UHGV virus genome: UHGV-1374314
DNA length: 8,526 bases
Reading direction: 5' to 3' (one strand)
Origin: a virus
The position numbers and the translations under genes were made by a program. Positions 4 to 36 of this stretch are shown one piece after another. Every line of letters begins with the position of its first letter. The stretch's first letter is position 1. The notes beneath the pieces were generated by a model. The model worked only from the letters and a program-made list of their open reading frames with translations, ran no database searches and was not told where the DNA came from.

Positions 4-36
4 GGTGCGCATAATGTACGACTCGTTATGTTGAAA
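4..36. other. dif-like XerC/XerD recombination site (putative prophage junction)
   Basis: GGTGCGCATAA at 4-14 is identical to the XerC-binding arm of enterobacterial dif (GGTGCGCATAA-TGTATA-TTATGTTAAAT). TTATGTTGAAA at 26-36 matches the XerD arm at 9/11, but the spacer between arms is 11 bp (TGTACGACTCG) rather than 6. Confidence 0.55.

Follow-up and report, generated by a model that had tools for sequence, protein, structure and literature searches.

The window, i.e. the whole 8,526-nucleotide stretch of viral DNA that was analyzed, coincides exactly with a single unit of an inovirus of the UPphi type, with the cut placed at the XerC arm of a dif-like site. At its left end lie two dif-like sites in inverted orientation with a GC-rich stem-loop between them, followed by small ORFs on the minus strand and by the core phage genes on the plus strand:

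1-3, plus strand: flank ATT, which pairs with 98-100 at the hairpin base (fold and inverted repeat I6)
4-14, plus strand: XerC-binding arm GGTGCGCATAA of the attP1-like long-spacer site, identical (11/11) to the XerC arm of E. coli dif
15-25, plus strand: long central region TGTACGACTCG, 11 nt, of which the first 4 nt (TGTA) match the dif centre TGTATA
26-36, plus strand: XerD-like arm TTATGTTGAAA, 9/11 matches to the dif arm TTATGTTAAAT
37-70, plus strand: distal GC-rich stem-loop that closes the hairpin, between the two dif-like sites
37-47 and 60-70, plus strand: distal stem, perfect over 11 bp, AGGCCGCTGCG / CGCAGCGGCCT (inverted repeat I1)
48-59, plus strand: distal loop of 12 nt, AAAATCGAATCC
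71-81, minus strand: XerD-like arm of the attP2-like short-spacer site, TTATGCTAAAG as read on the minus strand, 9/11 matches to dif
82-86, minus strand: short central region of 5 nt, TGACG as read on the minus strand
87-97, minus strand: XerC-like arm of the short-spacer site, GGTTCGCATAA as read on the minus strand, 10/11 matches to dif
98-100, plus strand: flank AAT, which pairs with 1-3 and is abutted by the stop codon of the minus-strand ORF 100-471
1959-3011, plus strand: gene II, rolling-circle replication initiator (Pfam Phage_CRI, 3.6e-71, and G2P_X_C)
3023-7762, plus strand: genes V, VII/IX, VIII, III, VI, I and IV, an I2-2/IKe-like structural and assembly module
8516-8526, plus strand: right end of the phage unit, ccatccttacc, followed by a new unit or by an intact dif

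Gene III carries a pilus-binding domain, gene I is Zot-like and gene IV codes for a secretin. The ORF in the gene VI position (5050-5394) was annotated as DUF5455, and this ORF as well as genes I and IV matched inovirus PHROG families. Besides the inovirus genes the window holds only small ORFs of no assigned function, and neither Pfam and PHROG scans of the ORFs nor the RefSeq annotation of 99%-identical copies gave a recombinase or integrase gene. Since all core phage genes lie on the plus strand, this gene-sense strand, as set by gene II, is presumed to be the packaged (+) strand. Within gene III, a 15-nt tandem repeat (4448-4507) encodes a glycine-rich GGGES linker; its copy number differs between strains, which partly explains the differences in unit length. 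A 48-nt stretch at 1043-1090, located between minus-strand ORFs and about 1 kb from the attachment site, shares 95.8% identity with a segment of the major intergenic region of phage If1. It contains a hairpin (GGTTCGGGGT...ACCCGAAC) and is a candidate packaging signal or origin element.

The GenBank phage collection gave only short matches (to IKe, PEar and If1) when searched in near mode. In distant mode the nearest named phages were I2-2 and IKe, with ~68% identity over half the genome; both are non-integrating Lineavirus phages. At about 99% identity, 80% or more of the window was present in 47 complete E. coli genomes. As judged by its match to the published description, the window fits UPphi on all points (core genes, h1/h2, gII/gV, dif tandems), although its set of ORFs adjacent to attL differs from that of some other UPphi members. 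UPphi was described by Shapiro and Putonti (2020, PMC7307601) as a phage that integrates at dif in tandem and is closest to I2-2 and IKe. According to these authors, only its genes II and V are homologous to those of YpfPhi, two ORFs (h1 and h2) follow gene IV, reverse-oriented ORFs lie beside the dif-like site, the GGGES repeat of gene III varies, and there was one case only of co-infection with YpfPhi (PMC7307601). Their description speaks of a dif copy and contains no mention of an inverted partner, a hairpin or an attP (PMC7307601).

The original prediction had been based on the left edge of the window, where it recognized an exact XerC arm, a degenerate XerD-like arm and a spacer of 11 bp. 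Alignment with the E. coli dif as read from K-12 MG1655 (GGTGCGCATAA TGTATA TTATGTTAAAT) gave the same picture in each respect: the XerC arms are identical (11/11), the XerD arms match at 9/11 positions, and the spacer has 11 nt as compared to the 6-bp centre of the chromosomal site, with TGTA shared. As a duplex, the site in the window is not expected to serve as a substrate for dimer resolution. The 11-mer of the XerC arm had also been considered unlikely to occur by chance, in agreement with the 0.01 exact copies expected per window and its presence in 2 of 200 shuffles. Composite dif-like sites, defined by a XerC arm with at most 1 mismatch, a spacer of 4-13 and a XerD arm with at most 2 mismatches, were present in 2 of 3000 simulated windows, whereas the real window carries two. 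The full 28-bp dif was found nowhere in the window, even when 3 mismatches were allowed; positions 4-36 are therefore not a native dif.

The second dif-like site, on the minus strand (97..71; GGTTCGCATAA TGACG TTATGCTAAAG), had been missed in the original prediction. It lies 57 nt downstream as the inverted partner of the long-spacer site, and the odd 11-nt spacer of the latter is explained by the pairing of the two sites. As single-stranded DNA, bases 1-110 were predicted to fold into one long hairpin of -33.1 kcal/mol, as compared to -12.3 +/- 2.5 kcal/mol for shuffles of the same stretch (z = -8.25; 0/200 as stable). With DNA parameters, the folds of the two strands were nearly equal (-33.1 vs -32.2 kcal/mol). 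In the predicted fold the XerC arms of the two sites are paired throughout except for one G:A mismatch, and 26-36 is joined to 71-81 by 8 Watson-Crick pairs and 2 G:T wobbles, with 1 mismatch. Within the long central region (15-25), TG is predicted to pair with 85-86 beside the XerC arm and CG with 82-83 beside the XerD arm, which leaves about 7 nt (6-7) bulged on the long strand and 1 nt unpaired on the short strand. According to this fold, the 11-nt spacer is the short (5-nt) centre plus a bulge.

A search of Rfam gave no family match anywhere in the window. The distal stem was not called by a consensus terminator scan, because its loop has 12 nt and a T-run is lacking. In most relatives the loop (48-59) keeps an AAAAT motif, even where the sequence of the stem has changed completely.

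Relatives were collected by a scan based on gene II, with one genome per species, and by a pattern scan of IMG/VR for inverted XerC-arm cores. Each of the 12 distinct hairpins obtained combines a long centre of 9-13 nt with a short one of 5-7 nt. In 10 of them the short centre consists of a TG prefix and a 2-4-nt suffix of the long centre, with a bulge of 5-7 nt, while the hairpins of L009 and L021 have no suffix in common between the two centres. Beside the XerC arm, the central regions of the relatives keep TGT or TG. The site was found together with the phage in E. coli, Y. pestis, Phytobacter and viral contigs, with the XerC/XerD consensus kept in both arms, and the long-spacer site lay on the gene-sense strand in all 11 loci for which gene orientation was determinable.

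When all 14 hairpins were aligned with MAFFT, the longer variants had their 3' arms misaligned; the covariation analysis was hence based on the 10 hairpins with lengths of 98-103 nt, and a script compared the arms in register. For these ten hairpins RNAalifold gave 35 consensus pairs, 17 of them with compensatory double changes. On the consensus structure 95.1% of the cells were paired, compared to 82.7% in column shuffles (0/500), and the covariation score was 0.366, compared to 0.139 in shuffles and at most 0.081 when the partners were slid. At position 7 of the XerD arm, a compensatory change of T to A in both arms occurred in three lineages. Most compensatory changes fall into the distal stem (37-70), the sequence of which varies among relatives while its pairing is kept; this covariation could reflect other selection, e.g. 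for transcription termination between convergent genes. The conservation of helix 1 is inflated, since the relatives from the pattern scan had been preselected for inverted XerC-arm cores. Distinct differences in the arms took the form of a G:T wobble on the gene-sense, long-spacer strand in 12 cases and on the opposite strand in 2 (roughly p = 0.007 by sign test, with lineages that are not independent).

The integrated state of the phage can be read from several genomes. UM146 carries a single copy at the dif locus, flanked by hipBA and an SDR gene; the empty dif site of K-12 was seen for comparison. Its left junction consists of the 11-nt-spacer site followed by the inverted partner, and its right junction reads ...ccatccttacc ATT GGTGCGCATAA TGTATA TTATGTTAAAT, i.e. 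the window end followed by a perfect dif. HUM3355 carries the phage in tandem, and at each junction the window end is joined to the window start (ATT-GGTGCGCATAA-TGTACG... of the next unit). In F11, four head-to-tail inoviruses are integrated at dif, each beginning with the hairpin, and the only intact dif is found at the far right. The hairpin-start layout of F11 recurs in L006, and an intact dif lies at the right end in L009 and L011. Thus, in UM146, F11 and L006 both dead sites are at the left end and an intact dif is at the right end only. The attL, the unit junctions and the attR share only the stretch ...GGTGCGCATAATGTA, so the crossover must lie within it.

These junctions bear out what had been predicted about the surroundings of the site. 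A second dif-like site past the right end is present, as an intact dif directly after the window's last bases in UM146 and at the far right of the array in F11. A native host dif is not what the window contains, since nothing within 3 mismatches of dif was detected in it and the site travels with the phage; and the boundaries of the element, far from being placed elsewhere, fall exactly at the XerC arm. The reading of the phage as a lysogenising IMEX, and not as an episomal phage of the Ff type, is supported by the lack of a recombinase gene in the scans, the prophage at dif and the junctions at both ends.

Several of these loci show further peculiarities. The array of F11 (L005, 10636-45741) is mixed and comprises two UPphi variants with different cargo modules, followed by two copies of the YpfPhi/CUS-1 type (phages 3 and 4), which are 99.5% identical to the Y. 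pestis prophage. The RefSeq record of UM146 (L002, 3780-4003) contains many N in the 220 bases that precede attL, the end of hipA among them, which suggests an assembly ambiguity at the prophage junction, possibly from a collapsed tandem array. The sequence left of dif in K-12 was considered as a fossil of the right end of the phage and rejected, as its local alignment score of 14 was matched by 556 of 2000 shuffles.

In L006, an insert of 3.4 kb (2811-6257) separates a K-12-like flank from the UPphi prophage. It starts with a hybrid site (AGTGCGCATAA TGTGTTGA ACATGTTAAAT) with an 8-nt spacer and ends with a 59-bp copy (85% identity) of the sequence that lies left of dif in the host. No Pfam matches were obtained for the ORFs of the insert, which could be a further IMEX. 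Although labelled as a Candidatus Nanosynbacter MAG, the contig is probably mis-binned, as its flanks are 99.6% identical to E. coli K-12; the origin of L010, labelled Aerococcus, is similarly suspect. In Klebsiella spallanzanii (L009, 5525-10400), two copies of gene II lie 3.8 kb apart in a dif-integrated element with hairpin spacers of 9/6 nt. The short unit may be a satellite-like element beside a full phage, reminiscent of RS1 beside CTXphi.

The attP(+) of CTXphi, as reportedly described by Val et al. in 2005, is a forked hairpin of attP1 and attP2. These sites, with centres of 12 nt (attP1) and 5-7 nt (attP2), are inverted and about 90 nt apart, and the real substrate is the folded (+) single strand, on which XerC exchanges one strand pair before replication finishes the reaction (PMC4246890, PMC3089051). 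Once integrated, the prophage is bordered at one end by a newly formed, functional dif and at the other by dead sites; it does not excise and is propagated by rolling-circle replication from tandem copies (PMC4246890, PMC3089051). The XerCD proteins of E. coli can process the folded site of CTXphi (PMC3089051).

The window resembles this system in many respects. Both phages have inverted sites with a long and a short centre (12/7 in CTXphi El Tor, 11/5 in the window), homology to dif that is limited to the bases beside the XerC arm, and a G:T wobble at position 8 of the XerD arm (TTATGTTG.. vs TTATGTTA..). The long/short layout is common to CTXphi and the family of the window, although the sharing of prefix and suffix between the centres is weaker in CTXphi. 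In addition, both lack an integrase, regenerate dif on one side, leave dead sites on the other and form tandem arrays. They differ in their arms, which match E. coli dif in the window and V. cholerae dif1 in CTXphi, and in the linker between the sites, a compact 34-nt stem-loop in the window and about 90 nt in CTXphi. The backbones are unrelated, the window having a gene II of the Ff/Lineavirus type and its own pIV secretin but not the RstA/RstB/RstR of CTXphi. Moreover, the mechanism has been proven experimentally for CTXphi, whereas for the phage of the window it is inferred.

Taken together, the site at 4-36 is very probably the attP1-like half of a CTXphi-type folded attachment site, by means of which XerC integrates the folded (+) strand. 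The original prediction had regarded it as an atypical site of the kind left by phages that hijack XerCD. The XerCD-hijacking part of this reading is supported, but the site is one arm of a hairpin rather than a lone duplex with an 11-bp spacer. In the proposed pathway, bases 1-100 of the (+) single strand would fold back so that the long-spacer site (4-36) pairs with the short-spacer site (71-97), and the GC-rich stem-loop at 37-70 would clamp the two sites together. In this fold a XerC arm and a XerD arm, each double-stranded, would be restored on either side of a partly unpaired centre, and the host proteins XerC and XerD would bind to the structure. By analogy with dif and CTXphi, XerC would cut the plus strand after A14, and one strand would be exchanged with the chromosomal dif, aided by the homology of TGTA to TGTATA. 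The pseudo-Holliday junction would then be resolved by replication. The predicted product begins with the host flank, the XerC arm, TGTACGACTCG, TTATGTTGAAA, the loop, the inverted site and the phage, and ends on the right with the phage XerC arm, TGTATA, TTATGTTAAAT and the host, i.e. with a regenerated dif. This order, predicted by strand tracing, exactly matched that of the observed junctions.

The pathway also accounts for the perfect arm at 4-14, since it supplies, once the phage has integrated, the XerC arm of the one dif that functions in the cell. The partner arm (87-97), which deviates from dif at one position, would need only to pair. Integration should be irreversible because the duplex spacers of 11 and 5 bp are unusable, and new (+) strands would come from gene II-driven rolling-circle replication across the junctions of tandem copies; the initiator gene is present, and tandem arrays occur in HUM3355 and F11. 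We infer Xer binding, catalysis by XerC only, irreversibility and the rolling-circle route alike. Some of the array copies need not have arrived via Xer, since YpfPhi, when it superinfects, is reported to insert frequently between copies already in place, possibly through homologous recombination (PMC4266046).

YpfPhi itself has two XerC/XerD sites, inverted relative to each other, which may be used in the manner of CTXphi; dif is restored intact at its 3' end, and it forms tandem arrays of 2-4 copies (PMC4266046). CUS-1 and YpfPhi have been listed as IMEXs of the CTX type (PMC4246890; PMC3089051), and the single-stranded route given for them in these reviews was deduced from sequence. Over its 100 nt, the hairpin of the window differs by 1 nt from the copy of Y. 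pestis (YpfPhi) or UM146. Like the window, YpfPhi/CUS-1 phages lie in tandem at dif and have variable cargo ORFs on the minus strand beside attL. Genes II and V of the two types are about 80% identical at the nucleotide level, whereas their pIV proteins are 27% identical, and no nucleotide match was detected between the window and YpfPhi/CUS-1 outside of gII-gV and the hairpin. As the rest of the genomes is unrelated, the attP and the replication module appear to be shared between two different virion backbones. CUS-1 is a phage of E. coli O18:K1:H7. Identity of the window with CUS-1 was considered and rejected, because the type found in UTI89, NU14, F11 (phages 3 and 4) and Y. pestis shares with it only gII-gV and the hairpin.

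Other explanations of the site were weighed against the folded attachment site. Next to no likelihood is left for the simplest of them, in which the site would be the dif of the host or have arisen by chance and would take no part in integration. The XerC arm is indeed identical to that of the host, but a native dif with its 6-bp centre is absent from the window, the composite site is as rare in simulated windows as given above, and the site accompanies the phage across hosts and recurs at every tandem junction. It is improbable that 1-100 is mainly a regulatory or replication hairpin, such as a minus-strand origin or a bidirectional terminator located between the minus-strand cargo ORFs and the last plus-strand ORF of the unit before it, with dif-like arms that are incidental or a relic. 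Such a role would agree with the GC-rich 11-bp stem between convergent genes, with the position of the cargo ORF's stop codon right next to the hairpin, as seen in the window, UM146, F11 and the remnant copies, and with the concentration of compensatory changes in the distal stem. It is difficult to reconcile with the outcome of the terminator scan, with the XerC/XerD consensus kept in both arms across hosts and with prophage boundaries located precisely at the XerC arm. Since 37-70 might act as a terminator as well as being part of the attP, such a function would be a possible addition and not an alternative.

More improbable still is an IMEX of the VGJphi type, the duplex replicative form of which would use 4-36 as a single attP, undergo XerC exchange at dif and be able to excise. 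Folded single-stranded and duplex attP1 x dif reactions yield the same product; the junction sequences equally fit a XerC-side crossover between duplex sites and alone cannot distinguish between the two, and the perfect XerC arm also agrees with a duplex reaction. Known duplex XerCD sites, though, have centres of 6-8 bp (about 7 bp in the VGJ type), and a spacer of 11 bp is far outside this range. A VGJphi-type phage should possess a duplex attP with a centre of ~7 bp and two recombinable flanks, while the spacers observed here are 11 and 5 and the two inverted sites are confined to the left end. A duplex attP would also leave unexplained why the inverted partner, which has a non-canonical spacer of 5 nt, is conserved, as well as the compensatory changes and the plus-strand-specific G:T wobbles. 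In addition, the nearly identical attP of YpfPhi/CUS-1 has been classed as CTX-type and not as VGJ-type (PMC4246890). For a phage of the TLCphi type, a duplex attP without a usable XerD arm would be expected, together with an activator, XafT, under which XerD makes the first exchange; the XerD-like arms of both sites match dif at 9/11 positions, and no match to DUF3653, the domain of the TLCphi-type activator XafT, was detected in the ten ORFs scanned with Pfam.

The minus-strand ORFs 100-471 and 517-984, which adjoin the hairpin, form a swappable cargo module. Unrelated ORFs occupy this slot in UM146 and in phage 1 of F11, and only HUM3355 and phage 2 of F11 share the set of the window; the stop codon of the first cargo ORF always abuts the hairpin. 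The four minus-strand ORFs beside the hairpin gave nothing significant in PADLOC or Pfam and belong to PHROG families of no known function. A weak match to PDC-S57 (3e-4) was the sole PADLOC/Pfam signal for ORFs 100-471/517-984.

A truncated hairpin (bases 27-100, ~94% identity) was present in roughly 600 further E. coli replicons, including ~400 plasmid places; such copies are located close to dif in many E. coli chromosomes, and several hundred plasmids, of the ColV type and others, carry them as well. In E. coli strain 222 (L030, 2946-5745) the remnant is at the dif locus, where the host flank is followed by an inverted repeat of the IS1202 family, the hairpin remnant, a minus-strand gene of the SIR2 family, an ISNCY transposase pseudogene, a second inverted repeat and an intact dif. 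The layout is the same on pECOS88 (L029, 2946-5784), but with an abortive-infection gene and with the plasmid dif-like site TGTGCGCACAA TCTATC TTATGTTAAAT. The defence-type gene of these remnants lies in the same slot as ORF 100-471 of the window. Elements of the IS1202 family are known to target dif and pdif sites beside the XerC arm (PMC10132070). Tentatively, the folded attP might be a portable integration module whose adjacent cargo slot feeds domesticated defence genes. The idea of a portable module, as opposed to one tied to a single phage lineage, is based on the hairpin, which is common nearly base for base to the UPphi and YpfPhi/CUS-1 backbones, on the mixed arrays in F11, and on the truncated copies beside anti-phage-type genes (SIR2, Abi) and IS1202-family elements. 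If it is true, dif and the Xer sites of plasmids would be an unrecognised entry point for defence genes in Enterobacteria.

The integration of UPphi at dif and the CTX-type class of the YpfPhi/CUS-1 attP were already known, and in this regard the finding is a rediscovery. The sole increment is the covariation and the strand asymmetry, which indicate that the attachment site of UPphi is a folded attP of the YpfPhi/CUS-1 type. The phage is thereby placed among the lysogenic IMEXs of the CTXphi class and not among episomal phages of the Ff type, and the 11-bp spacer is read as the signature of a single-strand hairpin substrate and not as a decayed dif. For annotation, this means that any dif-like site of an inovirus whose spacer has 9-13 nt calls for a search, within about 100 nt, for an inverted partner with a spacer of 5-7 nt, and that the boundaries of such prophages are best set at the left XerC arm and the right intact dif.
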